Below are positions 1,614-22,920 of a stretch of 32,000 nucleotides of DNA, piece after piece (positions within the stretch are counted from its first letter, which is position 1; each line of letters starts with the position of its first letter). Made by a program: the position numbers and the translations under genes. Source of the DNA: Longivirga aurantiaca (GTDB taxonomy: Bacteria > Actinomycetota > Actinomycetes > S36-B12 > CAIYMF01); NCBI RefSeq assembly GCF_042660085.1, contig NZ_JBHSTI010000008.1, positions 270,001 to 302,000 on the forward strand, written 5' to 3'. Below the pieces are notes generated by a model that saw only the letters and a program-made list of their open reading frames with translations, was not told the DNA's origin and made no database searches.

Positions 1614-2849
1614 GTGACCACGACGACCAGGAGCCCGCGACGCCGGGCCATGTATCTCGTTCCCGCGGCCGCCGCGATGCTGCTGACGGCCGCCTGCGGG
1701 AGCTCGACCGGCGGGGACGCGACTGCGACGTCCGCATCCGGGTCCGCATCCGGTTCGGCCGGCACGACGACCGAGCCGTACTGCGCGGAGGACGCGGCGA
1801 CCGCCCTGCCCGCCCTTCAGCCTGAGGGCATCGTCGGGCAGGGCCCGAACGGTGAGCCTGCGGCGTCGCCCGACGACGTGCAGATCAGCGACGAGGACGC
1901 GGCGACGATCAAGGCGGGCAAGAACGGCACCCCGTTCAAGGTCGCCCTCGTGTTCCAGTTCAGCGGTGACTGGCCCAACGGCCAGACCAAGGGGCTGACC
2001 GACGAGTTCAGCAAGTACGGCGTCGAGATCATCAGCAACACCGAGGCCAACTTCAAGGTCGACAAGCAGATCGCCAACATCGAGAACGCCATCCAGCTGC
2101 AGCCGGACGGCATCGTCTCGATCCCCGTCGACGACGTCGCCACCGCGCCCGCGTACAAGAAGATCTCGGAGGCCGGCATCAAGCTGGTCTTCATGGACAA
2201 CGCCGCGAAGGGCCTCACCGCTCCGGACGACTACGTGTCCGTGGTCTCGGCCGACTCGCAGGGCAACGGCCAGGTCGCCGCGAAGAAGCTCTCCTGCTAC
2301 ATCCCCGAGGGCGGCACCGTCGGCATCGTCGACTTCGGCATCACGTTCTTCGTCACGAACCAGCGCACCAAGGGCGCCCGTGACTGGTTCGCCGCGAACC
2401 GTCCCGACATCAAGCTCAAGGACGCCAACTTCACCGACCCGAACCAGGCCGGCGACGTCGCGGCGAACTTCCTCACGGCCAACCCCGACGTCAACGGCGT
2501 CTGGGCAGTGTGGGACGGCCCGGCGCAGGGTGTCATTGCTGCGCTGCGCGCCCAGGGCAAGAACCTCCCCGTCACCACGATCGACCTGGGCGACCAGGCC
2601 GCGACGGACCTCGCCAGCAGCGAGTACCTGAAGGGTGTCGGCGCCCAGCGTCCGTACAGCCAGGGCGTGGCCGAGGCTCGAGCGATGATGCTCGCGCTCA
2701 TCGGCAAGGACGTCCCGGCGTGGATCGGCGTCCCGGCGCTCCCGGTGATCCAGAACAGCCTCCGCCAGGGCTACGAGGACTCCTGGGCCAAGCCGCTGCC
2801 GGAGAAGCCCGAGGCAGCATGCAAGGCGAACGAGCCGAAGTGCGCGTGA
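1614..2849 (+). CDS. sugar-binding lipoprotein, PBP1/RbsB-like solute-binding protein (no cognate permease or ATPase in the window)
   Basis: Frame of ORF 1533..2849. The preferred start is GTG 1614, preceded by AAGGAGA (1604-1610). The N-terminus VTTTTRSPRRRAMYLVPAAAAMLLTAAC-GSS has a basic n-region and a lipobox. The body resembles periplasmic sugar-binding proteins. Alternative start: ATG 1650. Confidence 0.8.
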   Translation: MTTTTRSPRRRAMYLVPAAAAMLLTAACGSSTGGDATATSASGSASGSAGTTTEPYCAEDAATALPALQPEGIVGQGPNGEPAASPDDVQISDEDAATIKAGKNGTPFKVALVFQFSGDWPNGQTKGLTDEFSKYGVEIISNTEANFKVDKQIANIENAIQLQPDGIVSIPVDDVATAPAYKKISEAGIKLVFMDNAAKGLTAPDDYVSVVSADSQGNGQVAAKKLSCYIPEGGTVGIVDFGITFFVTNQRTKGARDWFAANRPDIKLKDANFTDPNQAGDVAANFLTANPDVNGVWAVWDGPAQGVIAALRAQGKNLPVTTIDLGDQAATDLASSEYLKGVGAQRPYSQGVAEARAMMLALIGKDVPAWIGVPALPVIQNSLRQGYEDSWAKPLPEKPEAACKANEPKCA

Positions 2850-2961: not shown

Positions 2962-3582
2962 TCAGGCTCCGTCCACTGCCGCGCGGAACGACCGGGCCCG
3001 TTCCTGGATCTCGTCGTACTGCTCGGTCTCCACCAGGCGGGCCGACGCCAGGTCGGATCCGGCGAAGAGCGCCACCGCCCCCGCGGCGAGGAAGCCCCCT
3101 GCGGTCTCAGGGGTCACGCCGCCCGAGGGCACCAGCCCGATATGGGGGAACGGTCCGCGCAGGTCCTTGATGTGGCCCGGGCCACCAGTCGCGGCGGGGA
3201 AGACCTTCACGAGCGCGGATCCCAGCTCATGCGCTGCCCACACCTCACTGGGTGTGTAGGCGCCGAGCATGAACGGAACCCCGCGGGCACGGCAGGCCTC
3301 GGCGATCCCGGGAAGGACGGCCGGTGTGACGACGAACTGGGCGCCGGCGTCGATCGCGTCGTGCGCCTGCGCTGCTGTCAGGACCGTGCCGGCGCCCACG
3401 ATCGCGTCGCCTCCCGCCCCTGCGGCGATGACGCCGAGCACGTCCGGGGTCGTGAAGGTGAACTCGACCAGGTGCACTCCGCCCGCGGCGAGGCTGTCGG
3501 CCAGGCGGCGCGGGTCGGGGACGCGGTCCGCGCGGATGACTGCCGCGATGCGGTCCGCGCGCAGGACATCGAGGGCATGCAT
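2962..3582 (-). CDS. eda: 2-dehydro-3-deoxyphosphogluconate / 4-hydroxy-2-oxoglutarate aldolase (paralog 1)
   Basis: ORF 2962..3606. The preferred start is ATG 3582, with AAGGGAG ending 5 nt upstream. Motifs: VEFTFTT (Glu), GAGTV, VKVFPA (Schiff-base Lys), PSGGV. GTG 3606 is an alternative start. Confidence 0.85.
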   Translation of the reverse strand: MHALDVLRADRIAAVIRADRVPDPRRLADSLAAGGVHLVEFTFTTPDVLGVIAAGAGGDAIVGAGTVLTAAQAHDAIDAGAQFVVTPAVLPGIAEACRARGVPFMLGAYTPSEVWAAHELGSALVKVFPAATGGPGHIKDLRGPFPHIGLVPSGGVTPETAGGFLAAGAVALFAGSDLASARLVETEQYDEIQERARSFRAAVDGA

Positions 3583-3608
3583 GCGTACTCCCTTGTATAT
3601 GGACACCG

Positions 3609-3628
3609 ACTTATCATAACGTCATGAT
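3609..3628. promoter_or_regulatory. conserved bidirectional promoter/operator core ACTTATCATAACGT, embedded in the near-palindrome ATCATAACGTCATGAT
   Basis: The 14-mer at 3609-3622 is identical to 22907-22920. ATCATAACGTCATGAT (3613-3628) pairs at 7 of 8 positions. It contains two overlapping TANNNT-type -10 hexamers: TATGAT on the minus strand (3613-3618) and TAACGT on the plus strand (3617-3622). Confidence 0.5.
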
Positions 3629-3676: not shown

Positions 3677-4402
3677 GTGACCCGACTTCGCGATCGAACC
3701 GTCCTGGTCACCGGGGCGACCGGTGGGATGGGCAGCGGCACGGTGCGCGCTCTCGCCCGGGAGGGGGCCCATGTCGGGGTGGCGGACATCGGCGTCGAGG
3801 CGGCGTCGCGGCTGGCAGCGGAGGTCGGCGGCACCCCGCTGCTCCTCGACGTCACGAGTCCGGCGAGCGTCACGGCCGCCGTCGAGGCGCTGGTGGCCGA
3901 GCGAGGCGGGATCGACGTCTTGGTGAACTTCGCCGGGATCGTCGACCCGCGCCGCATGGACGAGATCGACCCGGAGTCCTGGAGCCGCGTCTTCGACGTG
4001 AACGTCCGCGGTACGTGGCTGATGTGCAACGCCGTCCTCCCGCACATGCCTCGCGGCGGGGCCATCGTGAACATCGGCTCCCGCGCCGGGCTGGTGGGCG
4101 GCACCACGAGCGGAGCGAGCTACGCCGCCTCGAAGGCAGCGGTCATCTGCTTCACCAAGTCGATGGCGAAGTTCGCCGCCCCGATGGGCATCCGGGCCAA
4201 CGTGATCAACCCCGGGTGCATCGAGACCCCCATGCTCGATCACTTCGCGCCGGACGTCGTGGCCGCGATGCCCGGTCAGGCCGCTCTCGGCCGGCTCGGC
4301 ACACCGGCCGAGATCGCCGAGAGCGTCATCTTCCTCGCCACGGACGCCTCGTCGTTCATGACCGGTGCACAGCTCAACGTCAACGGCGGCAGCCACATGT
4401 AG
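3677..4402 (+). CDS. short-chain dehydrogenase/reductase (classical SDR)
   Basis: ORF 3632..4402. GTG 3677 is preferred because codons 3632-3676 have poor third-position GC. Motifs: TGATGGMG (TGxxxGxG), NFAG, YAASK (YxxxK), C-terminal NVNGG. Confidence 0.85.
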   Translation: MTRLRDRTVLVTGATGGMGSGTVRALAREGAHVGVADIGVEAASRLAAEVGGTPLLLDVTSPASVTAAVEALVAERGGIDVLVNFAGIVDPRRMDEIDPESWSRVFDVNVRGTWLMCNAVLPHMPRGGAIVNIGSRAGLVGGTTSGASYAASKAAVICFTKSMAKFAAPMGIRANVINPGCIETPMLDHFAPDVVAAMPGQAALGRLGTPAEIAESVIFLATDASSFMTGAQLNVNGGSHM

Positions 4403-4465
4403 GCCTCGCCCGCCGTCCCCGACGAAGGTCCGATCGACAAGCCGTCCCCAGAGAAGGAGGCCCCC

Positions 4466-5866
4466 GTGCTGGGAGCCGATGTGATCGTGCCCATCCCGCT
4501 CATCCCCGGGGTGCCCGTCCTCGCGGCCATGGGGGCGCTCTCGACCCTTCTGGTCAATCGGAACGTGAGCGTGTTCCATGACGGGCTGCGACCCCTCATG
4601 CCGTCGCTGCGCTCTGGTGAGATGACCCGGGACCAGGTCGCCAAGATCTCGTTCAGCCTCGCCCTCGCCTTCATCTGGGCCTTCGGCCTCCCCTACTCCG
4701 TGGGCTTCGTCATCCCGCTCATCTACCTGGTGTACATCGCGACCGACTACATCGGTGTGCGGCTGCCCGCGACCTATGACGTCAGGTGGTGGCAGAGCAG
4801 GACGAACCTCCTGGGCGTCATCGGGTCGCTGGTCCTGGGTGCCGCCTGGGGCGGTGGCGTCGCGGCCTTCCTGCACTACCTGGCCGTCGGGATGTCCAAC
4901 CTGCCTGTTCCGATGGCGGCAGGCACGGCGCTGTTCACCACCCCGGTGGCTCAGGCCTTCTTCCTGTTCCCCGTACTGACCGTGGTGTACCACTACGGCT
5001 TCAGGCCGGCGCTGGTGGCGTTCGTCGTGTCCACCCTCGCCTGGTTCTCGGCGAGCCAGTTCGGCTGGGCGCTGCCGTCCGTGTGGGCTTTCGGCGCAGC
5101 GCTTCTCGTGATGGCCGTGCTCCTCGTCCGGGAGGCGCGTCGCTCGGGGCCGGCAGCGGCCCAGGTGCCACCGGGCTGGCTCATCGAGGACGAATCCGCC
5201 GCGCCCGACTGGGCCTCGGCGGATTCCGACGACGAGGCCGAGGACCAGCTCTTCCGGGACAACGTGCGCCGCATCAAGGGCAACCTCCCGCTGATCACCC
5301 TGCTCGCGGGTCTCGGTGGGGCGGCCTACCACTGGGGCCTCGTGGCGATGGACCCGTTCTCGTCGAACCTGTACGCCGTAGGGCTCGCTCTCCCTGCCGC
5401 GCTGGTCATGCTCATGTGGGCCTTCGCCTTCATCCCCATGAAGTTCACGACCGCAGTGGTCACGGGGACCATGGCGACCGGCACGTTCCTCGAGCCTGTC
5501 GTCGCCCTCCTGATGCCCAACGTCTGGGCGGCTGCGATCGGCGTCGCACTGCTCCGCGTCGTCGAGGTCTTCCTGCTCCTCGCCGTCGTCGGCTGGATCG
5601 AGCGGTGGCCCAGCATCCGCGAGGTCGCCGACGTGATGCGTACGGCGATCTTCCAGATCATGGAGATCGGGTTCCTCGTGGGCGGCGCGCTGGCAGCCGC
5701 GGCGTGGGCGGGCACGTGGGGCGTGGGCGTCGTCGTCGCCGCGTGGTTCGTGAACATCAAGGCGAAGTCGCCCGTCATGCCCATGTCCCTCGGCGCGATC
5801 GCAGCCCTCGGCGTCGGCCTGGTGGTGAACGTGCTCGCCCTGCTGGGCCTGAACCTCACCCTCTGA
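4466..5866 (+). CDS. polytopic membrane protein, YhfT-like putative transporter
   Basis: ORF track, 466 aa, GTG start, with GAGAAGGAGG at 4451-4460. It has many hydrophobic stretches and a central acidic loop (EDESAAPDWASADSDDEAED). VSVFHDGLRPLMPSL and RRIKGNLPLI resemble my memory of E. coli YhfT. This needs HMM confirmation. Confidence 0.6.
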   Translation: MLGADVIVPIPLIPGVPVLAAMGALSTLLVNRNVSVFHDGLRPLMPSLRSGEMTRDQVAKISFSLALAFIWAFGLPYSVGFVIPLIYLVYIATDYIGVRLPATYDVRWWQSRTNLLGVIGSLVLGAAWGGGVAAFLHYLAVGMSNLPVPMAAGTALFTTPVAQAFFLFPVLTVVYHYGFRPALVAFVVSTLAWFSASQFGWALPSVWAFGAALLVMAVLLVREARRSGPAAAQVPPGWLIEDESAAPDWASADSDDEAEDQLFRDNVRRIKGNLPLITLLAGLGGAAYHWGLVAMDPFSSNLYAVGLALPAALVMLMWAFAFIPMKFTTAVVTGTMATGTFLEPVVALLMPNVWAAAIGVALLRVVEVFLLLAVVGWIERWPSIREVADVMRTAIFQIMEIGFLVGGALAAAAWAGTWGVGVVVAAWFVNIKAKSPVMPMSLGAIAALGVGLVVNVLALLGLNLTL

Positions 5867-5887
5867 GGCCTGCACCTGCGGAGGCCC

Positions 5888-5918
5888 GAGCCCGTCGTCC
5901 CCGTTGACGACGGGCCTC
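5888..5918. terminator. hairpin after the YhfT-like gene
   Basis: CCCGTCGTC (5891-5899), loop CCCGTT, GACGACGGG (5906-5914). The stem can extend by GAG/CCTC. A second small stem, GGCCT/AGGCC, lies at 5867-5886. Confidence 0.45.
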
Positions 5919-5934
5919 GCCGCGCCTACCATGG

Positions 5935-5967
5935 TGCAACGGGCGCAGACCCTATGCAACATACGCA
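5935..5967. promoter_or_regulatory. two direct TGC-N7-GCA boxes upstream of the GMC operon
   Basis: TGCAACGGGCGCA (5935-5947) and TGCAACATACGCA (5955-5967), with starts 20 bp apart. TATGCAACATACGCAA (5953-5968) matches 15647-15662 at 14 of 16 positions. Confidence 0.5.
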
Positions 5968-6002: not shown

Positions 6003-7628
6003 ATGAGCGTGTCGCACGACCCGGTGGACGTCCTCATCGTCGGCGCGGGCGCCTCGGGCTCCACAGCCGCCAAGCACCTGGCCGAGCAGGGGCGGAGCGT
6101 CGTCGTTCTCGACCAGGGCCACTGGACGGACGTGGGCGACCTCCCCGGCGACAAGCCGGAGTACGAGCTGCTGTGGAACAACCACCGGTTCCACCCGGAC
6201 CCCAACATGCGCGACCGCCGCGAGGACTACCCGACGAACCTCGAGGACTCCGAGCAGCCCGTGTACATGTACAACGGCGCGGGCGGCAGCACCGTCTACT
6301 TCGCCGGGGTCTGGAGCCGGCCGCTCCCGTCCGACTTCCGCGTGCGCACTCTCGACGGCGTCGCCGACGACTGGCCCATCAGCTACGAGGACCTGATCCC
6401 CTTCTTCGCGGCGACCGACTACGACATGGGCGTCTCCGGGCTCGCGGGCAACACTGCCTATCCGCCGGGGGCGGAGCCGCCGTTGCCGATGCACCCGATC
6501 AACCAGACCGGACGCCGCATGGCGGAGGGGCTGAACAGTCTCGGCTGGCACTGGTGGCCCGGGTACTCGGCCATCCCGTCCCGGGCGCACAACCGCCAGG
6601 CCCAGTGTGTTCGTCTCGGGGTGTGCCGGACCGGTTGCGTCGCCGGCGCGAAGGGTTCCGCGGACATCACTCTTCTTCCCGATGCCCTGGCACACGGTGC
6701 GCGCATCGAGACAGGAGCACGTGTCGCACGCATCACGCTGGACGAGATGGGCCGCGCGAACGGCGCCGTCTATCTCCAGGACGGCACGGAGAAGTTCCAG
6801 GCGGCACGTGTGGTCATCGTCGCCGCCAACGGGATCGGTACGCCGCGCCTGCTGCTGATGAGCGAGTCGAACCGCTTTCCGCACGGTCTGGCCAACAGCT
6901 CGGACCTCGTAGGTCGGCGTCTCATGCTCCACCCGTTCGGTTCGGCGATAGGTATCTACGACGAGGACCTGGAGGACTGGCTCGGTCCGGCCGGCACGCA
7001 GATCGAGTGCATGGAGTTCTACGAGACCGACGTCACCCGCGGCTTCGTGCGCGGCAGCAAGTGGCATGTCATGGGCACGGGTGGACCGCTCGAGATGGCC
7101 ACCCGCTGGCATATCGGGGAAGGCGTCCGCGACGAGGACTTCTGGGGCGAGCAGTTCACGCGCAAGATGAAGCAGGCCGTCGGCCACTCCATCGACTGGA
7201 TCGTCCACGCCGAGGACCTGCCCGAAGAGCACAACCGGGTCACGCTCGATCCCACGCTCACCGACAGCGACGGGCTGCCGGCGCCGAAGATCACCTACAT
7301 GACGTCGGACAACACCCACCAGATCCTGGACTTCGGGCTGAACCGCGCGGTGGAGGCGCACTACGCCGCGGGGGCGACGAAGGCGTGGATCACCTTCCGG
7401 AACTTCTCCTCGGGACACAACCTCGGGACGACGAAGATGGGTGACGATCCGGAGACCTCGGTGGTGGACCGTTGGGGTCGGACCCATGACGTCCCGAACC
7501 TCTACGTCATCGACGGTTCGGTCTTCACCACGTCGACCGCCACCAATCCGACCTCCACGATCTGTGCGCTGGCCAAGCGGACGGCGACGTTCATCGCGAA
7601 CAACCGTGACCAGGTGGTGGCGTGGTGA
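6003..7628 (+). CDS. GMC-family FAD-dependent dehydrogenase, large subunit (copy 1)
   Basis: Frame of ORF 5904..7628. Start ATG 6003 follows AGGGAG (5991-5996) and gives 541 aa, the same length as the paralog at 19874. Motifs: DVLIVGAGASGS FAD fold, HWWPGY, and the C-terminal NPTSTICALAKR segment typical of GMC enzymes. Confidence 0.85.
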   Translation: MSVSHDPVDVLIVGAGASGSTAAKHLAEQGRSVVVLDQGHWTDVGDLPGDKPEYELLWNNHRFHPDPNMRDRREDYPTNLEDSEQPVYMYNGAGGSTVYFAGVWSRPLPSDFRVRTLDGVADDWPISYEDLIPFFAATDYDMGVSGLAGNTAYPPGAEPPLPMHPINQTGRRMAEGLNSLGWHWWPGYSAIPSRAHNRQAQCVRLGVCRTGCVAGAKGSADITLLPDALAHGARIETGARVARITLDEMGRANGAVYLQDGTEKFQAARVVIVAANGIGTPRLLLMSESNRFPHGLANSSDLVGRRLMLHPFGSAIGIYDEDLEDWLGPAGTQIECMEFYETDVTRGFVRGSKWHVMGTGGPLEMATRWHIGEGVRDEDFWGEQFTRKMKQAVGHSIDWIVHAEDLPEEHNRVTLDPTLTDSDGLPAPKITYMTSDNTHQILDFGLNRAVEAHYAAGATKAWITFRNFSSGHNLGTTKMGDDPETSVVDRWGRTHDVPNLYVIDGSVFTTSTATNPTSTICALAKRTATFIANNRDQVVAW

Positions 7629-8073
7629 GCGTGGATGTGTCCGTGCAGGGTTCGGTCCCGCTCACCGCGGAGCAGCGGGCCCGGTTGTCCGCGCTGGCCG
7701 ACGTCCTGATCCGCGGCGGTGCCGGTCTGCCCTCGGCCAGCGAGGCGGAGGTGCACTCGGTGTGGATCGACCGGGTGTTCGTGGCGCGCCCGGACATGGA
7801 GGTCGTGGTGCGCGGGGTGCTGGACGTGGCTGGGGATGCCGAGTCGGTCGTGGCCGGTCTGCGGGCCTCGGACGCGGAGCGGTTCTCGGCGTTCGCGTTC
7901 GCTGTCGCGGGGGCGTGGCTGATCAATCCGCGGGTGCGTCGTGAGCTGGGCTACCCGGGCCCGGTGCCGATGCGTCAGCCCGCCCTGCCCGACGAGGCCG
8001 ACGCCTATCTCGAGGACGGCATCCTCGACGTCGTCATCGCCCGAGGCCCCATCTACCGCCCCACCCCGGACGC
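7560..8073 (+). repeat. 514-bp direct repeat, copy A (partner 21431-21944)
   Basis: Base-by-base comparison found only two mismatches (7657 C/G, 7903 T/G), both synonymous. The repeat covers the last 22 codons of the GMC gene plus essentially the whole small-subunit gene. Confidence 0.9.
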
Positions 8074-8080
8074 ACAGTGA
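7622..8080 (+). CDS. small subunit of the flavoprotein dehydrogenase (gluconate 2-dehydrogenase subunit-3-like), copy 1
   Basis: ORF track, 152 aa. The GTG overlaps the GMC stop (7626-7628). LTAEQRARLSALADVLIRGGAGLPSASEAEV fits the pattern of the small-subunit family. It has no twin-arginine signal. A GTGA overlap joins it to the next gene at 8077-8080. Confidence 0.6.
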   Translation: MVSVDVSVQGSVPLTAEQRARLSALADVLIRGGAGLPSASEAEVHSVWIDRVFVARPDMEVVVRGVLDVAGDAESVVAGLRASDAERFSAFAFAVAGAWLINPRVRRELGYPGPVPMRQPALPDEADAYLEDGILDVVIARGPIYRPTPDAQ

Positions 8081-9171
8081 GCTCGGTCCCTGTCTCCGAT
8101 GTCCTCGCCTGGAGCAGCGCAGTTCTCGTCGAGGCTGGGCTCGCTCCCGTCGACGCGGGATGGGTGGCGGAGAGCCTCGTCTTCGCCGACCTGCGAGGGG
8201 TGAGCACACACGGTGTGATGCGGCTCCCGACCTACGTCGCTCGCATCCGAGCGGGCGGTATCGCCGCGCGGCATTCGATCACCGTCGAGGCTGACCTGGG
8301 AGCGCTGGTGATCCTTGACGGCGGCGCCGGTGCCGGCGCGAGCCTCGGAGTGCACTCCGCCGATCTCGCCGTGGAACGCGCCCGCACCTACGGCATCGGC
8401 GCCGTGATCACCAAGAACGCCAACCACTTCGGCGCCTGCGCGTTCTACACCAACAGGATCGCCGACGCCGGGCTGCTGGGCCTGGTCGCGTGCAACACGG
8501 AATCCGTGATGTGTGCGCCGTTCGGTGGCGCACCCGTGCTGGGCACCAACCCGCTGGCGCTCGCCGTGCCGATGCCCGCGTCGGAACGCCCCCAGCTCGA
8601 CATGGCCACCACCACGACGAGCCAGGGCCGGCTGCTGATCGCGGAGCAGGCCGGGGAGCCGATACCGGTGGGGTGGGCCGTCGACGCGGGGGGACAACCC
8701 ACGACCTCCGCGAGCGAAGGCCTCCGCGGTGCGCTCCTGCCGATGGGCGGGCCGAAGGGGTTCGGGCTCGCCTTCGCCGTGGACGCACTCCTCGCGCTGG
8801 CCGGCGCCAACGTGAGCACGAGGGTGTCCGCTCTGGGCGGCGATCCCTCCGAGGCCCAGAGGCTGGGGCACATCGCCATCGCCATCCGCGCGGACGGTGC
8901 GCAGCCGCTCGACGACTACCGCAGCGCCATGAGCGGGCTTGTCGGTTCCATCCACGCCAGCTCGGTCGGGCTGGACGTGCCAGCGGCGGTCGCGCCGGGG
9001 GAGCCCGAGGTGGAGCGCGAGCGCGCGGCCGACGGGCGCATCTCGCTCTCGCCGCATGTCGTCGCGGAGCTCGCCGAGCTCGCCGAGAGCGCGGGGATCG
9101 CCCTGCCGTCCGCGCTCGCCGCACTCACGCGACCGATCACCACTCGCGAATCTGGAGAGACGAGCACATGA
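8077..9171 (+). CDS. Ldh_2-family (malate/L-lactate dehydrogenase type 2) oxidoreductase
   Basis: ORF track, 364 aa. Motifs: ADLRGVSTHGVMRLPTYV, FGGAPVLGTNPLALAVP, DMATTTTSQGR, GGPKGFGLAF. The family includes ureidoglycolate dehydrogenase and 2,3-diketo-L-gulonate reductase. Confidence 0.85.
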   Translation: MSSVPVSDVLAWSSAVLVEAGLAPVDAGWVAESLVFADLRGVSTHGVMRLPTYVARIRAGGIAARHSITVEADLGALVILDGGAGAGASLGVHSADLAVERARTYGIGAVITKNANHFGACAFYTNRIADAGLLGLVACNTESVMCAPFGGAPVLGTNPLALAVPMPASERPQLDMATTTTSQGRLLIAEQAGEPIPVGWAVDAGGQPTTSASEGLRGALLPMGGPKGFGLAFAVDALLALAGANVSTRVSALGGDPSEAQRLGHIAIAIRADGAQPLDDYRSAMSGLVGSIHASSVGLDVPAAVAPGEPEVERERAADGRISLSPHVVAELAELAESAGIALPSALAALTRPITTRESGETST

Positions 9172-10256
9172 CCACGATCGCCTCCGTGCGCTCCGACTAC
9201 TACCTGGTCCCGCTGGACGTCGTTCTGAGCGACAGCACCCACGGCAGCATCCCGCACTTCGAGCTGGTGACCGTCCGGGTCACAGACAGCGACGGAGCGG
9301 AGGGGATCGGCTACACGTACGCCGTGAACTCGGGCGGGGCTGCCTTCAAGACCCTGATCGACCACTACCTGACACCCGTGGTCCTCGGCGCCGACGTCGA
9401 CGCGAGCGAGCGCGTCTGGCAGGACATGTGGTGGGCCGTCCACTACTCCGGACGTGGCGGTCACGCGACCTCGGCGATCTCGGCCGTGGACATCGCGATC
9501 TGGGACCTGCGCGCCAAACGCGCAGGCCAGCCGCTGTGGCGCTACTTCGGCGGCTTCGACCCGAAGGTGCCGGTGTACGCCGGGGGCATCGACCTGGACT
9601 TCTCGGTCGAGGAGCTGCTCGAGCAGGCCGACCGTTTCCAGGAGCTCGGGTTCCGAGCCATCAAGATGAAGGTCGGCCGAGCGAGCCTGCGGGAGGACGT
9701 CGAGAGGGTCCGCCGGATGCGCGAGCACCTCGGCGACGACTTCCCGCTCATGGTCGACGCCAACATGAAGTGGAGCGTCGACCAGGCCGTGCGTGCTGCC
9801 CAGGCCCTCGCCGAGTTCAACCTGCTGTGGATCGAGGAGCCGACCATCCCCGATGACGTCGCGGGCCATGTGCGGGTCGTGCGCGAGGGGCGCACCCCGG
9901 TCGCCACCGGCGAGAACATGCACACGCTGTACGAGTTCAGCAACCTCATCGTCGCGGGCGGGCTGACGTACCCGGAACCGGACGTCACCAACTGCGGCGG
10001 CATGACCGTGTTCCGCAAGATCGCGGCGGTGGCGGAGGCGCACAATCTCCCCGTGACGTCCCATGGTGTGCACGATCTGACGGTCCACCTGCTCGCGGCT
10101 GCTCCCAACCGGACCTTCATGGAGGCCCATGGCTTCTCGCTGGACCGCTACATCGCCCACCCCATGGCCGTCGTGGACGGGTTCACCATGGCGCCCGAGA
10201 GGCCCGGGCACGGCATCGAGCTCGACTGGTCGGCTCTGGAGCAGCACCGGTCGTGA
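9168..10256 (+). CDS. enolase-superfamily enzyme, mandelate-racemase subgroup (probable acid-sugar dehydratase)
   Basis: Frame of ORF 8490..10256. ATG 9168 forms an ATGA overlap with the upstream stop, and GGAGAGA lies upstream. Product is 362 aa. Motifs: KxK (IKMKVG), metal ligands MVDANM / WIEEP / ATGEN, His in VTSHG. Confidence 0.85.
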   Translation: MTTIASVRSDYYLVPLDVVLSDSTHGSIPHFELVTVRVTDSDGAEGIGYTYAVNSGGAAFKTLIDHYLTPVVLGADVDASERVWQDMWWAVHYSGRGGHATSAISAVDIAIWDLRAKRAGQPLWRYFGGFDPKVPVYAGGIDLDFSVEELLEQADRFQELGFRAIKMKVGRASLREDVERVRRMREHLGDDFPLMVDANMKWSVDQAVRAAQALAEFNLLWIEEPTIPDDVAGHVRVVREGRTPVATGENMHTLYEFSNLIVAGGLTYPEPDVTNCGGMTVFRKIAAVAEAHNLPVTSHGVHDLTVHLLAAAPNRTFMEAHGFSLDRYIAHPMAVVDGFTMAPERPGHGIELDWSALEQHRS

Positions 10257-10942
10257 CTACGGGAGCGATAAGACGCCGCCTCGTCCTCTGGGATGTCGAC
10301 GGCACGCTGGTGAGCAACGACGAGAGCGACGAGCGGCTGTTCGTGGCCACCACCGAGTCCGTCCTCGGCCCGTTGCCGCACATCGTGCACCCGTACCGCC
10401 ATGGCAAGACCGACCGGCAGCAGGTGATCGAGTACCTCAAGGCCAACGGAGGCTCCTCCGCGCAGGCTGACGAGGGCTCGAGGCTTCTTGTCGAGCACTC
10501 ACGGGTGCACTTCGCCGAGCCCGGAGAGCGTGTGACGCTGCCGGGGGTGCGAGCAACGCTCGAGGCGCTCGCTGCCGCAGGGCACGTCAACGCCATGCTG
10601 ACCGGGAACAGCGAGGTGCGCGCACGGCTCAAGCTGCGATCCGCCGGCTTGTCATCGGAGCATTTCGACTGGGCGTCCAGCTTCTTCGGCGGAGCCGTCG
10701 CCTCCCGCCTAGACCTGACGCGTGCTGCCTCGGAGTACGCCGCTGGCCGCGGCCTGGTGCCGGTGGTGATCGGGGACACCGCCGCGGACTCGCACGCGGC
10801 CGAGATCGCGGGGATCGAGTTCATCGGCGTGGCCACGGGCGTGTACGACGCCTCGGAGCTACGAGCGACCCCGAACGTCCTGGTCGTCGACGACCTGGAC
10901 GTGGGTGGCCGTTCCGTCCTCGACCTTCTCGCGACCCGTTAG
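10253..10942 (+). CDS. HAD-superfamily hydrolase (phosphatase-like)
   Basis: ORF track, 229 aa. GTGA overlap with the enolase stop. DxDGT motif (LWDVDGTLV) and a late GDT..D motif (VIGDTAADSHAA). Confidence 0.7.
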   Translation: MTTGAIRRRLVLWDVDGTLVSNDESDERLFVATTESVLGPLPHIVHPYRHGKTDRQQVIEYLKANGGSSAQADEGSRLLVEHSRVHFAEPGERVTLPGVRATLEALAAAGHVNAMLTGNSEVRARLKLRSAGLSSEHFDWASSFFGGAVASRLDLTRAASEYAAGRGLVPVVIGDTAADSHAAEIAGIEFIGVATGVYDASELRATPNVLVVDDLDVGGRSVLDLLATR

Positions 10943-11337
10943 GAGCCGACGGCTGCGGCCTTCTCGGCCAGCCTGGACCCGAACTTGTCCAGGTCGACGA
11001 TGAACCGCTCATGAGTACCGGCGACGACGTCGTCGATACCGTCGTTCGCTGTGATCTCGAAGACGACACGGCGCCGATCGACCTCGGTGACGGTTGCCGT
11101 GCAGGTCACGGTCTGCCCCAGCAGTGTCGCGGCGGTGTGCGCGATGTCGACGCGCGTGCCGACGCTCGACTGGGTCGGCGGTAGGTGAGGTGCCAGCGCC
11201 TCGATCGCCGTGAGCTCCAGCAGCAGGACGAGATCAGGCGTGGCGAAGATGCGGTAGTCGCCTCGCTCCGTGCAGTCCTCGAGCTCGATCCGCTTGACCA
11301 GCGTGCCGCTGGTGCCCACGGTGATGTCGTCGATCAT
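10939..11337 (-). CDS. hotdog-fold thioesterase-like protein (FlK-like)
   Basis: ORF track, 132 aa, with GAGAGGA RBS upstream. The size and the pattern FATPDLVLLLE...SVGTRVDIAHTAATLLGQTV...RRVVFEI fit small hotdog thioesterases. Confidence 0.55.
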   Translation of the reverse strand: MIDDITVGTSGTLVKRIELEDCTERGDYRIFATPDLVLLLELTAIEALAPHLPPTQSSVGTRVDIAHTAATLLGQTVTCTATVTEVDRRRVVFEITANDGIDDVVAGTHERFIVDLDKFGSRLAEKAAAVGS

Positions 11338-11355
11338 GGTGTCCTCTCGGGTTGT

Positions 11356-12267
11356 CTAGAGCACTGCCAAAGGGTTCACCGGAGAGCCGGTTCCCCCGGG
11401 GATGCGCAGGGGGGCCATGGCGAACAGGAACTCCCAGCGGTCGAGGTCCGCGCAGGCGACCGCGAGGTCCTCGAGGGACATGTTGTCGATGAGCGGCATG
11501 CCCATCGCATTGAGCGCCAGCGCATGGATGGGCGAGACGATGCCCGCGACCGGGCTCGGTCGGGCGTCGCTGTCGCCGTCCGAGCCGAGCAGGGCGGACC
11601 CGTCGCGGCTGAGCACCTGCATGCAGTCAGGCCCGAGACCCGCACTGAAGTTCGAGGGGTCCCAGGCGCCGAGGGCGTCCTTCCTCGCACGAGCGCCCGT
11701 GCGCACGAGGACGGCGTCCCCGGGACGCAGAGACACGCCCTGCTCAGCGAGCACCGATTCGAGCTCGTCGGCTCCGATGGCCGTGCCGGGATCCAGCCAC
11801 GGCAGTCCGCGGCTGCGCGGGACGTCCACCAGGACACCGCGGGTCACTACCCCGTGTGCCATGTGGGCGACGGTTCCGACGTCGCCACCACGATCGCCGA
11901 CGTGCGTCTCGGAGTCGTAGCCGTTGTAGAGACGTCCGCGGAACACGCAGTGGCACAGGGCGTCGAGGTGCGTCACGGACTTCCCGTGGAAGTCCATGCC
12001 CACGTAGTCGGTGTTGACGCTCGGCTCGGCGTCCCCCGTGGCCGCGTATCCGGTCATGCGGTGCTCGACGGGTCGAGCGTTGTCGGGGCCGGGATCGCGA
12101 TCCAGGTCATGGCTCAGGCTGATCGAGCGGCCCACCCGGACGAGCGAAGAGGCCTCGACGACCGTGCGGTCCGAGATGTGATGGAGAGTCCCGCGCTGAT
12201 CGTCGTGACCCCAGCGACCCCAGGTGCTGACCCGATCGAAGAGCGCGTCGAAGTCCGCGGACTCCAT
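11356..12267 (-). CDS. cyclase-family protein (kynurenine-formamidase-like metal hydrolase fold)
   Basis: Frame of ORF 11356..12651. ATG 12267 lies 2 nt after the upstream stop. Product is 303 aa. FHGKSVTHLDALCH resembles the HxGTHxDxPxH motif of the putative-cyclase family. Confidence 0.65.
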   Translation of the reverse strand: MESADFDALFDRVSTWGRWGHDDQRGTLHHISDRTVVEASSLVRVGRSISLSHDLDRDPGPDNARPVEHRMTGYAATGDAEPSVNTDYVGMDFHGKSVTHLDALCHCVFRGRLYNGYDSETHVGDRGGDVGTVAHMAHGVVTRGVLVDVPRSRGLPWLDPGTAIGADELESVLAEQGVSLRPGDAVLVRTGARARKDALGAWDPSNFSAGLGPDCMQVLSRDGSALLGSDGDSDARPSPVAGIVSPIHALALNAMGMPLIDNMSLEDLAVACADLDRWEFLFAMAPLRIPGGTGSPVNPLAVL

Positions 12268-12269
12268 GG

Positions 12270-12698
12270 TCACGGGTTCCTGTCGATCTCGAACATCACG
12301 AGCTCCGCCTCGCCCTCGAGCACCACGAGTCCCTCGCCCTTGGAGACCGTGGTGGTGACGAATACCCGGCCGCGCTCCTCGTTCTTGTCGGTGACGACGC
12401 ACTCCACGGTGATGCGGTCCCCGATGAGCACAGGTCCTCGGAAGCGCATGGTCTGCGACACATACGCGCTGCCGACGCCCAGCAGCTGGGCCAACGTCGC
12501 ACCGATATAGCCGCCGCACTGCATGCCGTAGGCGACCCGCCCTCCGAAGCGTGTCGAGGCAGCGAACACCTCGTCCAGGTGCAGCGGACCTCGGTCGCCG
12601 ATGATGCCGGCGTACATGACGACGTCGGCCTCCGTGACCGTGCGCGTCCACTCCTCACGGTCGCCGACCTGGACCTGGTCGATGGTCAGGTACTTCAC
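12270..12698 (-). CDS. MaoC-like (R)-specific enoyl-CoA hydratase/dehydratase
   Basis: Frame of ORF 12270..12755. GTG 12698 forms a GTGA overlap with the ligase stop. Motifs: ADVVMYAGIIGDRGPLHLDEVFA, a hydratase-2-like motif, and a single hotdog domain. Confidence 0.8.
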   Translation of the reverse strand: MKYLTIDQVQVGDREEWTRTVTEADVVMYAGIIGDRGPLHLDEVFAASTRFGGRVAYGMQCGGYIGATLAQLLGVGSAYVSQTMRFRGPVLIGDRITVECVVTDKNEERGRVFVTTTVSKGEGLVVLEGEAELVMFEIDRNP

Positions 12699-14338
12699 GT
12701 CTGCGCTCCTGTGATGAGTTGCCGCAGGGACACCCCGGCGGCATGACGGTCCCACGTGTCCGGCGTGACGCCCTCGTTGCGCAGGGCGACCTTCTGCGGC
12801 TTCCCGTTAGGGGTCCTGGGCAGCTGATCGAGCACGCGGACGTAGCGAGGCACCATGAAGTGCGGCAGTCGTTGCGCGAGGTCGGTGATGAGAGCGCCCG
12901 GATCGAGCGGGGCGCCGGGCGCGGGGATCAGGCACAGCAGCACGTCGTCGTCGCCCGCGAACTCCGAAGGAACGCCGACGGCGGCGCACTCGGCCACGCC
13001 CGGATGCTCGAGCGCGGCACGCTCGATCTCGTACGACGAGATGTTCTCCGCTCGGCGGCGGATGCGCTCCTTGACCCGGTCCACGAAGTACACGTAGCCA
13101 TCCTCGGCGATGTAGGCGAGGTCGCCCGTGTGGAACCACAGGTTTCGCCATGCGGCCAGAGTGGCCTCGGGCATGCGCAGGTAGCCCTGCATCATGGTGA
13201 AGGGCCGTCGAGGGCGCAGGACCATCTCGCCCGTGCTGCCCAGCGGGACCTCCTCGTCGGTGTCCGGGTCGACGATCCGCAGCTCGAAGTGCTCAGCACG
13301 CAGGCGCCCGCACGATCCGATCCGCAGTGGTTCGTCGAACGGCTGCCAGATCGGGATCGTCACCTCGGTCATCCCCCACGTCTCGATCCCGCGGATGCCG
13401 AAGCGCTCCTGGAAATCCAGGGCGATGCCGGCGGGGAACGGGGAGGCCATGATGCGGGTGATGGGGTTCTCGGCATCGTCAGCTCGCACCGGCTGCTGGT
13501 GCAGCATCTCGACGAGGGGGCCGTGCAGGAGCGCGATGGTGCAGTCGTTCTCGCGCGCCCGCGACAGGAACTCGTCGACCGCGAAGCGCGTGTCGAGGAC
13601 GACGCGCCCGGCGGCCATCATCGAGCCCATGATCCCGATGAACTTCCCTGCGACGTGGAACAGCGGGATGAAGCAGTAGAAGGCGTCGTCCGAGGTCATC
13701 CGCGCGCCTTCGACGCCGAGGCGCGAGAACAGCCGCACCTGACCGTGAGGCATCATCACGCCCTTGGCCGGTCCCGTCGTCCCGGACGTGTAGATGATGG
13801 ACGCGATGTCGTGGGGTCCGACGAGCCGCTCGGGCGCGGTGTCGGACGCGCCCAGGACGTCATGGAACGCCAGGGTCCTGGTGCCGGGGACCGTCACCGT
13901 CACCGGTCCGTCGCCGGCGGGGTAGACGACGACCGTGTCCAGATGGGTGAGCGAGTCGCTGATCTCGACGACCCGGGGGAGCAGCGCCTCCTCGACGAAC
14001 ATGACGCGCGCCTGGGAGTTCTGCAGCACATGCTCGAGGCTGTGGCCGCGGTAGCCGGTGTTGATCGCGACCTCGACCGCGCCTGCGAGGCTCGTGCCCA
14101 GCCAGGTGGCGATGGACTCCGTGGAGTTGTCGGCCATGATCACGACGCACTCGCCGTGCGCGACGCCCAGCGCGACGAGCCCGTTGCCGACGGCGCACGC
14201 GGCGCGGTAGGCCTCGGCGTAGGTCACCGGTCGGCCGCCGACCTGGCGGAAGAACTCGCGCTCTCCGTCCTCGCCGGCGCGGGCCCGGAGCAGATCCGGA
14301 AGAAGCGCGTCGAGCATGACGTCCACGGTGTGCGGCAC
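12695..14338 (-). CDS. acyl-CoA synthetase / AMP-dependent ligase (ANL superfamily, CaiC-like)
   Basis: ORF track, 547 aa. AMP-binding motif IIYTSGTTGPAKGV, plus GMTE, YFVDRVKERIRR and PRTPNGK. The start may instead be GTG 14326, which has GAAGGG 9 nt upstream. Confidence 0.85.
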   Translation of the reverse strand: MPHTVDVMLDALLPDLLRARAGEDGEREFFRQVGGRPVTYAEAYRAACAVGNGLVALGVAHGECVVIMADNSTESIATWLGTSLAGAVEVAINTGYRGHSLEHVLQNSQARVMFVEEALLPRVVEISDSLTHLDTVVVYPAGDGPVTVTVPGTRTLAFHDVLGASDTAPERLVGPHDIASIIYTSGTTGPAKGVMMPHGQVRLFSRLGVEGARMTSDDAFYCFIPLFHVAGKFIGIMGSMMAAGRVVLDTRFAVDEFLSRARENDCTIALLHGPLVEMLHQQPVRADDAENPITRIMASPFPAGIALDFQERFGIRGIETWGMTEVTIPIWQPFDEPLRIGSCGRLRAEHFELRIVDPDTDEEVPLGSTGEMVLRPRRPFTMMQGYLRMPEATLAAWRNLWFHTGDLAYIAEDGYVYFVDRVKERIRRRAENISSYEIERAALEHPGVAECAAVGVPSEFAGDDDVLLCLIPAPGAPLDPGALITDLAQRLPHFMVPRYVRVLDQLPRTPNGKPQKVALRNEGVTPDTWDRHAAGVSLRQLITGAQT

Positions 14339-14341
14339 CCT

Positions 14342-15322
14342 TCAGATGTTGACGGCGGACATGTCGCTGTAGCGGTCGCCGACGACGGCATCCGGCGGGA
14401 CGAGATCGCCCAGCCGAGCCAGGTGCTCGTCCGTGAGCTGCAGCGACGCCGCGGCGACGTTGGACTCGAGGTTACGGCGGTGCTTCGTCCCCGGGATGGG
14501 TACGACGTCGTCGCCCTGTGCGAGCACCCACGCCAGCGCCAGCTGCGCGAGCGTGCAGCCCAGATCGTCGGCGATCTCGCGGGAGGCCTCCACGAGGGCG
14601 AGGTTGCGCTGCAGCGCATCGCCCTGGAAGCGCGGCGACGTGCGCCGCCAGTCGTCGGGCGCCAGGTCGTCGGCGTGGCTGATCGCACCCGTGAGCAGCC
14701 CTCGGCCCAGCGGGCCGTAGGCGACGAACCCGACGCCCAGCTCACGGCACACCGGGAGGATCTCCTGCTCCACGTCGCGGCTCTGGAGGGAGTACTCGCT
14801 CTGGATCGCCGCAACCGGGTGCACGGCATGGGCCCTGCGCAAGGTGGCGCCCGAGACCTCCGACAGCCCGATGTAGCGCACCTTGCCCGCAGCCACCAGG
14901 TCGGCCATCGCCCCGACCGTCTCCTCGATGGGAGTGTCCCGGTCCAGCCGGTGCTGCCAGTAGATGTCGATGCGGTCGGTGCCGAGGCGCTGGAGGGACA
15001 GGTCGCAGGAACGTCGGACATAGTCCGGGCGTCCGTTGACGCCGAGGTTCGTCCCGTCCGAGGCGCGCACCATGCCGAACTTGGTGGAGTAGAGGACCCG
15101 GTCCCGCTGTCCGGCGAGCGCATGACCGATCAGGGCCTCGTTGGCGAACGGGCCGTAGACGTCGGCGGTGTCGAAGAGCGTGACGCCGAGCTCCACGGCT
15201 CGCAGCAGCGTGGCGCGCGACTCCGCGTCGTCGAAGTCGGTGCCGTACGTGCCGGACATGGTCATGCAGCCCAGACCGAGGGACGACACCTCGAGCTCGG
15301 CGCCGAGGCGACGGGTGCGCAC
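14342..15322 (-). CDS. aldo-keto reductase
   Basis: Frame of ORF 14342..15700. GTG 15322 lies 2 nt after the upstream stop. Product is 326 aa. Motifs: LGAELEVSSLGLGCM, FDTADVYG, KFG, and IGLSE, typical of AKR11/13-like enzymes. Confidence 0.85.
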   Translation of the reverse strand: MRTRRLGAELEVSSLGLGCMTMSGTYGTDFDDAESRATLLRAVELGVTLFDTADVYGPFANEALIGHALAGQRDRVLYSTKFGMVRASDGTNLGVNGRPDYVRRSCDLSLQRLGTDRIDIYWQHRLDRDTPIEETVGAMADLVAAGKVRYIGLSEVSGATLRRAHAVHPVAAIQSEYSLQSRDVEQEILPVCRELGVGFVAYGPLGRGLLTGAISHADDLAPDDWRRTSPRFQGDALQRNLALVEASREIADDLGCTLAQLALAWVLAQGDDVVPIPGTKHRRNLESNVAAASLQLTDEHLARLGDLVPPDAVVGDRYSDMSAVNI

Positions 15323-15324
15323 GG

Positions 15325-15633
15325 CTACTGCCCGACCGGGAAGACGGTCTCGACCCGGCGGACGGAGATGCTCAGGACGAAGGCCTTGGGCTCGTCGCCG
15401 ATCACCGCGGCCCGCCTCTCCGACGCCCGGTAGCGGGCCTCCTGCTCCTCGGCGGTGCCCTCGCCGACGAACTCGCGCACCCACAGGAAGGTGGAGGTCG
15501 CACGGTCGGCCCACGCACCGCGCACGGGCAGCCCGAACTCCTCGTGGAGGGGCACGATCTTGTCGTGGAAGAGCGTCAGCCAGGCGTCCATCGTGCCTGG
15601 GACGATCTCGTACGTTCGATGCTCGACGGTCAC
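15325..15633 (-). CDS. NIPSNAP-family small alpha/beta-barrel protein
   Basis: ORF track, 102 aa, GTG start with GGAGAGG RBS. The pattern YEIVPGTMDAWLTLFHDKIVPLHEEFGLPVRGAW...FLWVREF fits NIPSNAP domains. Confidence 0.6.
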   Translation of the reverse strand: MTVEHRTYEIVPGTMDAWLTLFHDKIVPLHEEFGLPVRGAWADRATSTFLWVREFVGEGTAEEQEARYRASERRAAVIGDEPKAFVLSISVRRVETVFPVGQ

Positions 15634-15648
15634 CGGTATCCTCTCCTA

Positions 15649-15681
15649 TGCGACATACGCACATTGATTGCATATGTCGCT
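15649..15681. promoter_or_regulatory. inverted pair of TGC-N7-GCA boxes in the divergent region between the NIPSNAP operon and kdgK
   Basis: TGCGACATACGCA (15649-15661) and TGCATATGTCGCT (15669-15681), with starts 20 bp apart. The arms GCGACATACGCA and TGCATATGTCGC are reverse complements with one mismatch and a 7-bp spacer. Confidence 0.55.
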
Positions 15682-15746
15682 GAGTGAGGCTAACGTCCAT
15701 CGGAAAGGCAGGTCAAGGTGACCAGCCCCGACGCGCGAAGGCCGAC

Positions 15747-16697
15747 GTGAGCGGGAGTGACCCAGATCTGGTTGCCGTCGGCGAGACGATGGCGACCTTC
15801 GTGCGCGCCGGCGCAGTCGATGCCTACCGGCTCGTGACGGCCGGGGCCGAGTCCAATGTCGCCGCCGGGATGGCCGTGCTGGGGTGCCGGACGCAGTGGC
15901 ACTCGCGGCTCGGGGCCGACGAGCTCGGCGCGTTCGTCGCCGACTCGCTCGCGGCGGCCGGGGTCGACGTCGTCGTCGAGCGCGACCCCGAGCGTCCTAC
16001 GGGTGCGGCGGTCAAGGAGATCGGCGACGCAGGGTCCCGGATGCGCTACTACCGCGCCGGCAGCGCGGCGAGCCGACTCGACCTGCTGGACACGCGTCCC
16101 GCTCAGGAGGCGCAGCGCCTGCACCTCACCGGGGTGACCCCGGCCCTGTCCCGCGAGAACAGCGGCGTGGTCGCGCGGCTGCTCGCCGACCGCCGCGGGG
16201 GCACCAGCTTCGACATCAACTACAGGCCGGTCCTCTGGGCCAGCGCCGAGCAGGCTGCCAGCGTCCTCATCCCGCTGGCACGATCCGCCGACGTCGTCCT
16301 CATCGGCGATGACGAGGCACGGGCGCTTCTCGGGTCCGACGACGTCGACGTGGTGGCGCGAGCGATCCTGGTGCGGCCCGACCAGGAGCTGGTGCTCAAG
16401 CGCGGGCCGTCCGAGGCCGTGCTCGCGACCGAGGACCGGCGCGTCTCCGAACCGGCTCACCGGGTCGAGGTCGTCGACGTCACCGGAGCGGGGGACGGGT
16501 TCGCGGCGGGCTACCTGACGGCTGCGGTCTGGGGCTGGCCCGCGCGTGCGAGACTCCGGCTCGGGCATTTCCTGGCCTCACGGGTCGTGGGAGTCCTGGG
16601 AGACACCGTGCCTGACATCGACCGAGAAGACCTGACCAGGCTCGCCGTTGACCTGGGGCAGACGTGGCCGAACCCGACGGAGGAGAGACGACGATGA
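15747..16697 (+). CDS. kdgK: PfkB-family sugar kinase, 2-dehydro-3-deoxygluconokinase-like
   Basis: Frame of ORF 15684..16697. GTG 15747 is preferred because it leaves room for the divergent promoter. Motifs: LVAVGETMA N-terminus and DVTGAGDGFAAGYL anion-hole/ATP motif. Confidence 0.8.
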   Translation: MSGSDPDLVAVGETMATFVRAGAVDAYRLVTAGAESNVAAGMAVLGCRTQWHSRLGADELGAFVADSLAAAGVDVVVERDPERPTGAAVKEIGDAGSRMRYYRAGSAASRLDLLDTRPAQEAQRLHLTGVTPALSRENSGVVARLLADRRGGTSFDINYRPVLWASAEQAASVLIPLARSADVVLIGDDEARALLGSDDVDVVARAILVRPDQELVLKRGPSEAVLATEDRRVSEPAHRVEVVDVTGAGDGFAAGYLTAAVWGWPARARLRLGHFLASRVVGVLGDTVPDIDREDLTRLAVDLGQTWPNPTEERRR

Positions 16698-18051: not shown

Positions 18052-18064
18052 TGATGAGTCGCCG

Positions 18065-18094
18065 TTGACTCCTCCCGACGCATCTGGGTAATCT
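18065..18094 (+). promoter_or_regulatory. candidate housekeeping-type promoter for the etf-GMC operon
   Basis: TTGACT (18065-18070), 18 nt, TAATCT (18089-18094). The TGC boxes begin 3 nt downstream of the -10. Confidence 0.35.
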
Positions 18095-18096
18095 TC

Positions 18097-18129
18097 TGCA
18101 CTATGCGCGGAGCATCTGCATATGCTGCA
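18097..18129. promoter_or_regulatory. paired TGC-N7-GCA boxes upstream of etfB
   Basis: TGCACTATGCGCG (18097-18109, one mismatch) and TGCATATGCTGCA (18117-18129), with starts 20 bp apart. Confidence 0.45.
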
Positions 18130-18140
18130 TTGGAGGGCTC

Positions 18141-19846: not shown

Positions 19847-19873
19847 CCAGCGCACCAGGGTCGGGAGGATCTC

Positions 19874-22908: not shown

Positions 22909-22920
22909 TTATCATAACGT
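22907..22920. promoter_or_regulatory. second copy of the ACTTATCATAACGT promoter/operator core
   Basis: 14 of 14 identical to 3609-3622. It fills most of the 21-bp gap between the divergent start codons at 22908 and 22930. It carries the same overlapping -10-like hexamers (TATGAT minus, TAACGT plus). Confidence 0.5.

Follow-up and report, generated by a model that had tools for sequence, protein, structure and literature searches.

The open reading frame (ORF) at positions 4466–5866 (+) of a 32,000-nt stretch of the Longivirga aurantiaca genome (NZ_JBHSTI010000008.1, positions 270,001–302,000; this whole stretch is hereafter called the window) encodes a full-length member of the known but uncharacterised YhfT family, in an unusual and informative arrangement. 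Considered jointly, our results suggested that this protein is likely the conserved membrane component of the yhf island of this genome and the importer of its substrate, and that its gene was split from php, with which it still shares an operator. Except for YhfZ, the yhf gene set of Escherichia coli is complete in this one island. The yhf clusters of four phyla had no membrane protein in common other than YhfT; this and the buried invariant polar residues of the protein were the reasons for assigning it a carrier role.

Identity and structure of the YhfT family protein

Gene calls in the window, whose G+C content is ca. 70%, were based on third-position G+C and Pfam matches; the genome has a size of 3.67 Mb and a completeness of 96.3%. 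The yhfT gene occurs once in this genome and starts with GTG, located 5 nt downstream of GAAGGAGG (4453–4460). The deduced protein of 466 amino acids matched the Pfam family PF10797 (YhfT) with an E-value of 1.8e-78 (264.9 bits against a cut-off of 26.1), and the alignment was of nearly full length, pairing residues 18–462 with positions 4–429 of the 430-position profile. BLASTP likewise aligned it end to end with E. coli YhfT over 460 columns (28% identity, E-value 3e-46). Within this alignment, the segments VSVFHDGLRP and RRIKGNLPLI were paired with AAVFHDGIRP and SRIIKNLPYI of the E. coli protein, respectively. The first-pass annotation, which was made from the letters of the window without database searches, had pointed to the likeness of these two segments to E. 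coli YhfT, and both the profile and the pairwise comparison confirmed its family assignment.

The same annotation had described the product as a polytopic protein of 466 residues, in agreement with the ORF call, with hydropathy segments typical of polytopic membrane proteins and with an all-helical AlphaFold2 model of 18 helices (pLDDT 90.4, pTM 0.87). According to hydropathy and the model, a central loop at residues ca. 227–252 is acidic and disordered. In an alignment of 16 YhfT sequences from Actinomycetota, Proteobacteria, Bacillota and Chloroflexota, 13 residues were invariant (F37, H38, D39, G40, R42, P43, D94, R269, E367, R392, E400, N430 and N455), and nine of these were buried polar residues, namely H38, D39, R42, D94, E367, R392, E400, N430 and N455. 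No relative of YhfT was found in the PDB by sequence, no NCBIfam model matched it, and a Pfam scan at E-values up to 10 returned only the YhfT family and noise. Carriers of the SLC4/SLC23 type were considered as structural relatives and set aside, as their top TM-scores of 0.18–0.23 were far too low for use. An internal duplication was likewise rejected; hhalign gave a probability of 0.6% for the N-terminal half against the C-terminal half, and no repeat was detectable by sequence. The protein called 'YhfT' in the literature on Bacillus and Staphylococcus is an unrelated acyl-CoA ligase, and literature searches on yhfU, yhfW, yhfX, yhfY, DUF2620 and SFCGS yielded nothing useful.

Separation of YhfT from its yhf partners

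From the yhfT stop codon, the distance is 16.1 kb to php and 18.9 kb to yhfU (24780); the first-pass annotation had given ca. 17 kb for the distance to the php/yhfU/W/X-type genes. The association of YhfT with yhfU, php, yhfW and yhfX was found at the level of the island (16–19 kb) and not as adjacency. Gene order was compared among 59 loci with YhfT relatives, for which FHDG(L/I)RP served as the search pattern and onto which the window proteins were mapped. Outside the Nocardioides-like clade to which the window belongs, yhfT had a yhf partner (yhfU, php, yhfW or yhfX) no more than 1.5 kb away in 48 of 49 loci and 2.1 kb away in the remaining one; these loci spanned Proteobacteria, Bacillota, Chloroflexota and Actinomycetota. 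In non-clade actinobacteria (Microbispora, Sphaerisporangium, Arthrobacter and metagenome-assembled genomes [MAGs] of two Nocardioides), the order was yhfT, php (convergent), an AroE-like gene, a GntR-type gene, yhfU, the PRD gene, yhfW and yhfX, followed by ptsH-ptsI and/or eda, and in other Nocardioides (L022 and L023) yhfT directly adjoined php. Orthologues from non-clade actinobacteria shared 52–53% identity with YhfT and 55–74% with its partners, and these similar values fit co-divergence rather than separate acquisition.

The clade itself comprised 10 loci from at least five species (73–86% identity) with the order binding protein, (eda), short-chain dehydrogenase/reductase (SDR), YhfT, GMC and Ldh_2, and none of the 10 had a yhf partner near yhfT within the flank examined. 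In four further clade genomes, the distance between yhfT and yhfU was 19.2–19.4 kb. As a separation of ca. 19 kb recurs in at least five species, the split is old and stable; yhfT was ancestrally next to php, and its separation has been conserved in the clade. The split yhf-type locus proposed in the first-pass annotation was thus borne out by the single-copy YhfT, the presence of its partners in the same island, the adjacency outside the clade and the recurrent gap. Furthermore, YhfT and YhfU (above cut-off) occurred in identical genomes, both among relatives (3 of 41) and in a phylum-wide sample (2 of 401). Together with its being the sole membrane protein common to yhf clusters, this co-occurrence lends genomic support to the earlier proposal that YhfT is the membrane component of the ptsHI-linked yhf operon, with the ABC importer discussed below as a caveat.

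Three further observations were made during the comparison. A contig labelled as a Bifidobacterium breve MAG (L012, CALQEM020000153.1) carried genes for the binding protein, Eda, SDR, YhfT and GMC with proteins 82–93% identical to those of the window, and is probably mis-binned. Two MAGs of Bacillota/Negativicutes (L027 and L028) contained two YhfT paralogues per yhf cluster, at ca. 10001–11260 and 15861–17146. A chromosome of 1.38 Mb with the label of a mayfly endosymbiont of the Rickettsiales (L049, OZ026535.1) contained a yhfU-yhfT-php-yhfX-yhfW cluster.

A shared operator at the two promoters

Upstream of the SDR–YhfT unit, a promoter-like site (TGGACA-17-CATGAT, 3600–3628, +) is overlapped by a putative operator, in which the 14-mer ACTTATCATAACGT (3609–3622) forms the left part of a 16-bp palindrome, ATCATAACGTCATGAT (3613–3628). 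A second exact copy of the 14-mer lies at 22907–22920 (+), within the 21 nt that separate php from the AroE-like gene; none of 100 shuffles matched as often. When up to three mismatches were allowed, the whole 3.67-Mb genome contained just three sites for the 16-mer, and two of these were the SDR–YhfT and php promoters. Eight of nine clade relatives (L012–L015 and L017–L020) also carried the palindrome, with one to three changes, in front of their SDR gene. In five other actinobacterial loci (L021–L024 and L026), the full palindrome was located between the php and AroE-like genes, covering a −10 box (CATAAT) 17 nt past a TTGAC box. A third, weaker copy of the 14-mer (three mismatches) was noted at 18046–18059 (−), between eda2 and etfB.

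Read as regulatory sites, these elements constitute an operator that is shared by both promoters, conserved and nearly unique in the genome. The first-pass annotation had taken the 14-mer as support for co-regulation of the two halves, and at the sequence level this held, the copies being exact, conserved and nearly unique. The SDR and YhfT genes would be transcribed together from the promoter overlapped by ATCATAACGTCATGAT. The island encodes a GntR/HutC-type regulator with GntR and UTRA domains (23888–24679, −; Pfam and NCBIfam), which is the candidate repressor for this operator; given that one operator type lies on both the SDR–YhfT and php promoters, it probably represses SDR–YhfT and the php-side half together.

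Partner genes and phosphotransferase proteins of the island

On the far side of the inserted block, php (21955–22908, −) encodes a phosphotriesterase-homology protein of the phospho-sugar lactonase type (PF02126, E-value 3.6e-62), which also matched NCBIfam PRK09875 and phospho-furanose lactonase models, both below their cut-offs. The next gene (22930–23901, +) encodes a distant AroE-like dehydrogenase of 323 amino acids without a Pfam match; NCBIfam shikimate dehydrogenase models reached an E-value of 1.8e-10, far below their cut-offs. This gene is kept in actinobacterial yhf modules, with orthologues in the same five loci as the full palindrome (L021–L024 and L026). Beyond the regulator gene, yhfU (24780–25184, +; DUF2620, PF10941, E-value 5.9e-30) encodes a cysteine-loop protein and is followed by genes for a stand-alone YhfY-like PRD protein (25156–25599, +; PF00874, E-value 2e-9), in which His73 is invariant and His134 nearly so, and a YhfW-type phosphomutase (25599–26801, +; NF009049, 436 bits against a cut-off of 254), whose ATG overlaps the stop codon of the PRD gene. 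The yhfX-type gene (26786–27994, +) encodes a pyridoxal phosphate (PLP) enzyme with an alanine-racemase-like fold (YhfX-like_C, E-value 3e-25; Ala_racemase_N), and the operon closes with ptsH (27991–28266, +) for HPr and ptsI (28263–29948, +) for Enzyme I (EI) of the phosphotransferase system (PTS), each the sole copy in the genome. At 174–9306 nt past the end of the window, the island continues with genes for a YhfS-like PLP enzyme, a class-III aminotransferase, a SIS protein, an ABC ATPase, an ABC permease and a second SDR. Judging from their families, the partner enzymes suggest a route through phosphorylated sugar-like intermediates that ends in an aldolase of the 2-keto-3-deoxy-6-phosphogluconate (KDPG) type.

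In YhfU, Cys57 and the surrounding loop, D-YY-G-C-x-[ST]-GGG, are invariant, and Cys57 aligns with the catalytic-cysteine motif of RpiB. The top Foldseek matches of YhfU were RpiB structures (1o1x, 5ifz and 6fxw; TM-scores 0.59–0.63), and RpiB also ranked first in a profile search against the PDB (E-value 0.11). YhfU was examined as a possible EIIB and rejected, as the profile and Foldseek searches placed it with RpiB/LacAB isomerases and no EIIB was among the top matches.

EI, HPr and the PRD protein are each encoded by a single-copy gene, and all three genes lie in this island. None of PTS_EIIC, EIIC-GAT, PTS_IIB, EIIA_1, EIIA_2, EIIA-man, lactose-type EIIA (PTS_IIA) and gutA-type EIIA was found in the 96.3%-complete genome. 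From its gene content, the PTS of this genome appears to be one without a canonical sugar-specific part, and since EI, HPr and the PRD protein are encoded only here, the yhf system is the only visible client of the PTS relay.

Proposed role of YhfT and alternative explanations

YhfT would most likely carry the pathway substrate into the cell. In the ancestor its gene adjoined php, and a 16-kb block of oxidation, coenzyme A (CoA) and kdgK genes, with GMC duplicates at its ends, now lies between them in the clade. For energisation, we favour a secondary carrier, whose substrate would then be phosphorylated in the cytoplasm via EI, HPr and the PRD protein, or which would itself be gated through these proteins. 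Transport activity, its direction, the identity of the repressor and energisation are the elements that we infer, and several observations weigh against this importer role or parts of it. No characterised member of the YhfT family was found in the literature. Foldseek comparison of the YhfT model with the PDB gave a best E-value of 0.14 and TM-scores of ≤ 0.23, with no resembling solved structure, so that even the transporter fold is presumptive. In the php promoter of the window, the 14-mer represents only the left half of the palindrome; 9 nt separate it from ATGATG, and the right half-site is displaced by 9 nt. In the clade member L016, no operator was seen in the 130 nt preceding the SDR gene. 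Moreover, the island also encodes a complete CUT2-type ABC importer, which is a possible real uptake route.

The ATPase and permease genes of this importer are located at C8:305793–308500, 4–6 kb past the window end and ca. 33 kb from the binding-protein gene (1650–2849). Their products are 53% and 58% identical, respectively, to those adjoining YhfT in Streptomyces, and the binding protein is 55% identical to the one encoded next to YhfT in Streptomyces; in both Streptomyces and Microbispora, the whole ABC system lies beside YhfT. Actinobacterial yhf islands therefore have two membrane systems. As YhfT is not the only candidate permease of the island, this serves as a warning for a simple reading of the protein as the missing permease. 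The binding protein had looked orphaned within the window and in N. aquiterrae, and a TRAP/TTT-like pairing with YhfT as a binding-protein-dependent secondary carrier was considered; it was rejected because the matching ATPase and permease genes lie past the window end.

Three other explanations were weighed against the proposed carrier. YhfT could be the membrane part of a previously unrecognised, phosphoenolpyruvate-driven PTS-type uptake class, in which phosphate would pass from EI through HPr to the PRD protein (His73) and perhaps onward to Cys57 of YhfU, with phosphorylation of the substrate during its passage through YhfT. The single-copy EI, HPr and PRD genes of the island, the failure to find the five EIIA families, PTS_IIB, PTS_EIIC and EIIC-GAT in the genome, and the invariant histidine and cysteine residues in the PRD protein and YhfU all speak for such a relay, as do the yhf core lacking a kinase and the downstream enzymes (YhfW mutase, Php-type lactonase, KDPG aldolase and RpiB-like YhfU), which are of types that act on phosphorylated sugars. 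YhfT indeed resembles PTS EIIC proteins (Glc/Fru/Lac, PF02378; Gat/Asc-type, PF03611) in being a polytopic protein linked to EI, HPr, a PRD protein and phospho-sugar enzymes, as the sole ptsH and ptsI close the yhfU–X operon of its own island. However, it matched no EIIC family in the Pfam scan, no EIIC was among the top 50 PDB matches of its model in Foldseek, and no cognate EIIA or EIIB was found in the genome. The fold and cysteine motif of YhfU are those of RpiB/LacAB isomerases and not of an EIIB, yhfT is in a different operon from yhfU and the PRD gene, 19 kb away from them, and the island has both a PfkB kinase (kdgK) and the ABC importer. We therefore regard a PTS-type mechanism as unlikely. 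It is rather more doubtful that YhfT and the SDR were recruited in the clade to an oxidation pathway (GMC, Ldh_2, enolase-superfamily enzyme and Eda) independent of yhfU–X/ptsHI, with the yhf substrate entering via the ABC system. The yhfT and SDR genes do make up a separate unit of two genes that ends in a hairpin, with the GMC operon immediately downstream and eda1 alongside, the arrangement of binding protein, SDR, YhfT, GMC and Ldh_2 is kept across the clade, and the ABC ATPase and permease genes are at the yhfS end of the island. Nevertheless, the SDR–YhfT promoter bears the yhf-type operator and not the motif of the block (ATGCAACATACGCA), the single-copy YhfT has the same phyletic pattern as YhfU, and an SDR–YhfT pair lies among yhf genes in a Chloroflexota locus (L025) that has no GMC block.

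We consider it very unlikely that YhfT is not a carrier at all and serves the yhf system as a membrane sensor, anchor or enzyme. Such a role would accord with a model matching no known transporter fold, with the lack of a repeat detectable by hhalign and with the ABC importer already present in actinobacterial islands. In enterobacterial and Bacillota clusters, however, YhfT is the sole membrane protein and no other transporter is present, and beyond the disordered acidic loop it has no soluble domain. The reading of YhfT as the membrane component and probable importer of the island thus remains the one that we prefer. The gene lies 19 kb away from yhfU and the PRD gene, yet it keeps the same operator and phyletic pattern, indicating that the tie is functional and not an accident of gene order.

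Genes around YhfT and the inserted block

Upstream of the SDR–YhfT unit, the gene at 1650–2849 (+) encodes the sugar-binding lipoprotein (Peripla_BP_4; Pfam E-value 1.5e-40) of the CUT2-type ABC importer, with a lipobox, LTAAC, downstream of Met40 of the long ORF. It is followed by eda1 (2962–3582, −), encoding an aldolase for KDPG and 2-keto-4-hydroxyglutarate (TIGR01182, 175.9 bits against a cut-off of 156), which is divergent from SDR–YhfT and whose ATG at 3582 is preceded by AAGGGAG. The SDR gene (3677–4402, +; adh_short_C2, E-value 1.9e-61) is the first gene of the unit and lies upstream of yhfT on the same strand with a gap of 63 nt, consistent with the co-orientation reported in the first-pass annotation. 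An SDR gene adjoins yhfT in the Chloroflexota locus (56% identical) and lies near it in Streptomyces (L009).

A hairpin terminator of its own had also been assigned to yhfT. A strong, G+C-rich hairpin of 13 pairs is indeed present downstream of the gene (5887–5919, +), and the 69-nt stretch containing it folds at −35.9 kcal/mol (z = −2.8). A scan found no canonical intrinsic terminator after yhfT, and the hairpin does not qualify as one because no T tract is present; the 3′ arm of the hairpin overlaps the −35 box (TTGACG) of the promoter-like site that follows (5904–5932), upstream of GMC1. The structure, but not the terminator class, of the earlier assignment thus stood. A hairpin of different sequence occurs at the equivalent place in L012, L013, L014 and L020; relatives retain a hairpin around a conserved GTTGAC, and the sequences of the arms vary.

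The block inserted between yhfT and php (6003–21948, ca. 16 kb; Pfam) consists of genes for GMC1 and its small subunit, Ldh_2, an enolase-superfamily protein and a HAD protein, followed by a CoA operon, kdgK-iclR-eda2, etfBA, and genes for GMC2 and its small subunit. The GMC and small-subunit paralogues at the two ends of the block are 13.87 kb apart and 97–100% identical over the most similar 300 nt. The motif ATGCAACATACGCA was found four times against 0.69 expected, and three copies (0–2 mismatches) lie in promoter regions of the block, namely upstream of GMC1 (5954–5967, +), between the CoA operon and kdgK (15648–15661) and upstream of etfB (18117–18130). Words related to it also occur upstream of GMC1 in L015 and L016. 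A second regulator, perhaps the product of the iclR gene at 16664–17437, probably uses this motif as its operator, and having a motif of its own marks the block as a separate regulon.

Comparison with known systems and implications

In E. coli K-12, YhfT (b3377) is encoded in the cluster yhfZ-yhfY-yhfX-yhfW-php-yhfU-yhfT-yhfS, which to our knowledge has no known function. The two YhfT proteins are of the same Pfam family and share the invariant FHDG(L/I)RP; php, yhfU, yhfW, yhfX and a PRD protein gene are present here too, and a YhfS-like gene lies just outside the window. In contrast to the E. coli cluster, yhfT here is paired with an SDR gene in a unit of two genes, 19 kb away from yhfU, a GntR/HutC-type regulator takes the place of YhfZ, the operon has its own ptsH and ptsI, and the island additionally contains genes for Eda aldolases and an ABC importer as well as a large oxidation block.

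A second parallel is offered by the EF_0830/AHA_3911 'glycine-rich SFCGS' clusters, which according to TIGRFAMs descriptions comprise a PRD protein, an SFCGS protein, membrane proteins, an amidohydrolase, a PLP enzyme and a KDPG aldolase; we know of no characterised member of these clusters either. YhfU matched their models weakly and below the family cut-offs (Gly_rich_SFCGS, E-value 0.011; TIGR03577, E-value 2e-4). Going by the cluster descriptions, the likeness extends to the PRD protein, a cysteine/glycine-loop protein, a membrane protein, a hydrolase, a PLP enzyme and an Eda aldolase. In DhaKLM, the PTS-dependent dihydroxyacetone kinase, EI and HPr feed phosphate to a cytoplasmic reaction and not to a membrane EIIC, a precedent that fits YhfT as an ordinary carrier. 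In contrast to DhaKLM, the present system is in a genome that yielded no match for an EIIA-man (DhaM-type) domain.

The yhf cluster is one of the conserved operons without known function, and the window is informative for them. With YhfT 19 kb from yhfU and the PRD gene, its tie to the yhf system amounts to a natural experiment, and this distance indicates that tight translational coupling with YhfU is not needed. The role of the PTS proteins in the yhf system can be addressed here without interference from other PTS branches. If the PTS-type mechanism were true, the yhf system would be the only PTS output of this genome, which would thus provide a clean natural background for that idea.

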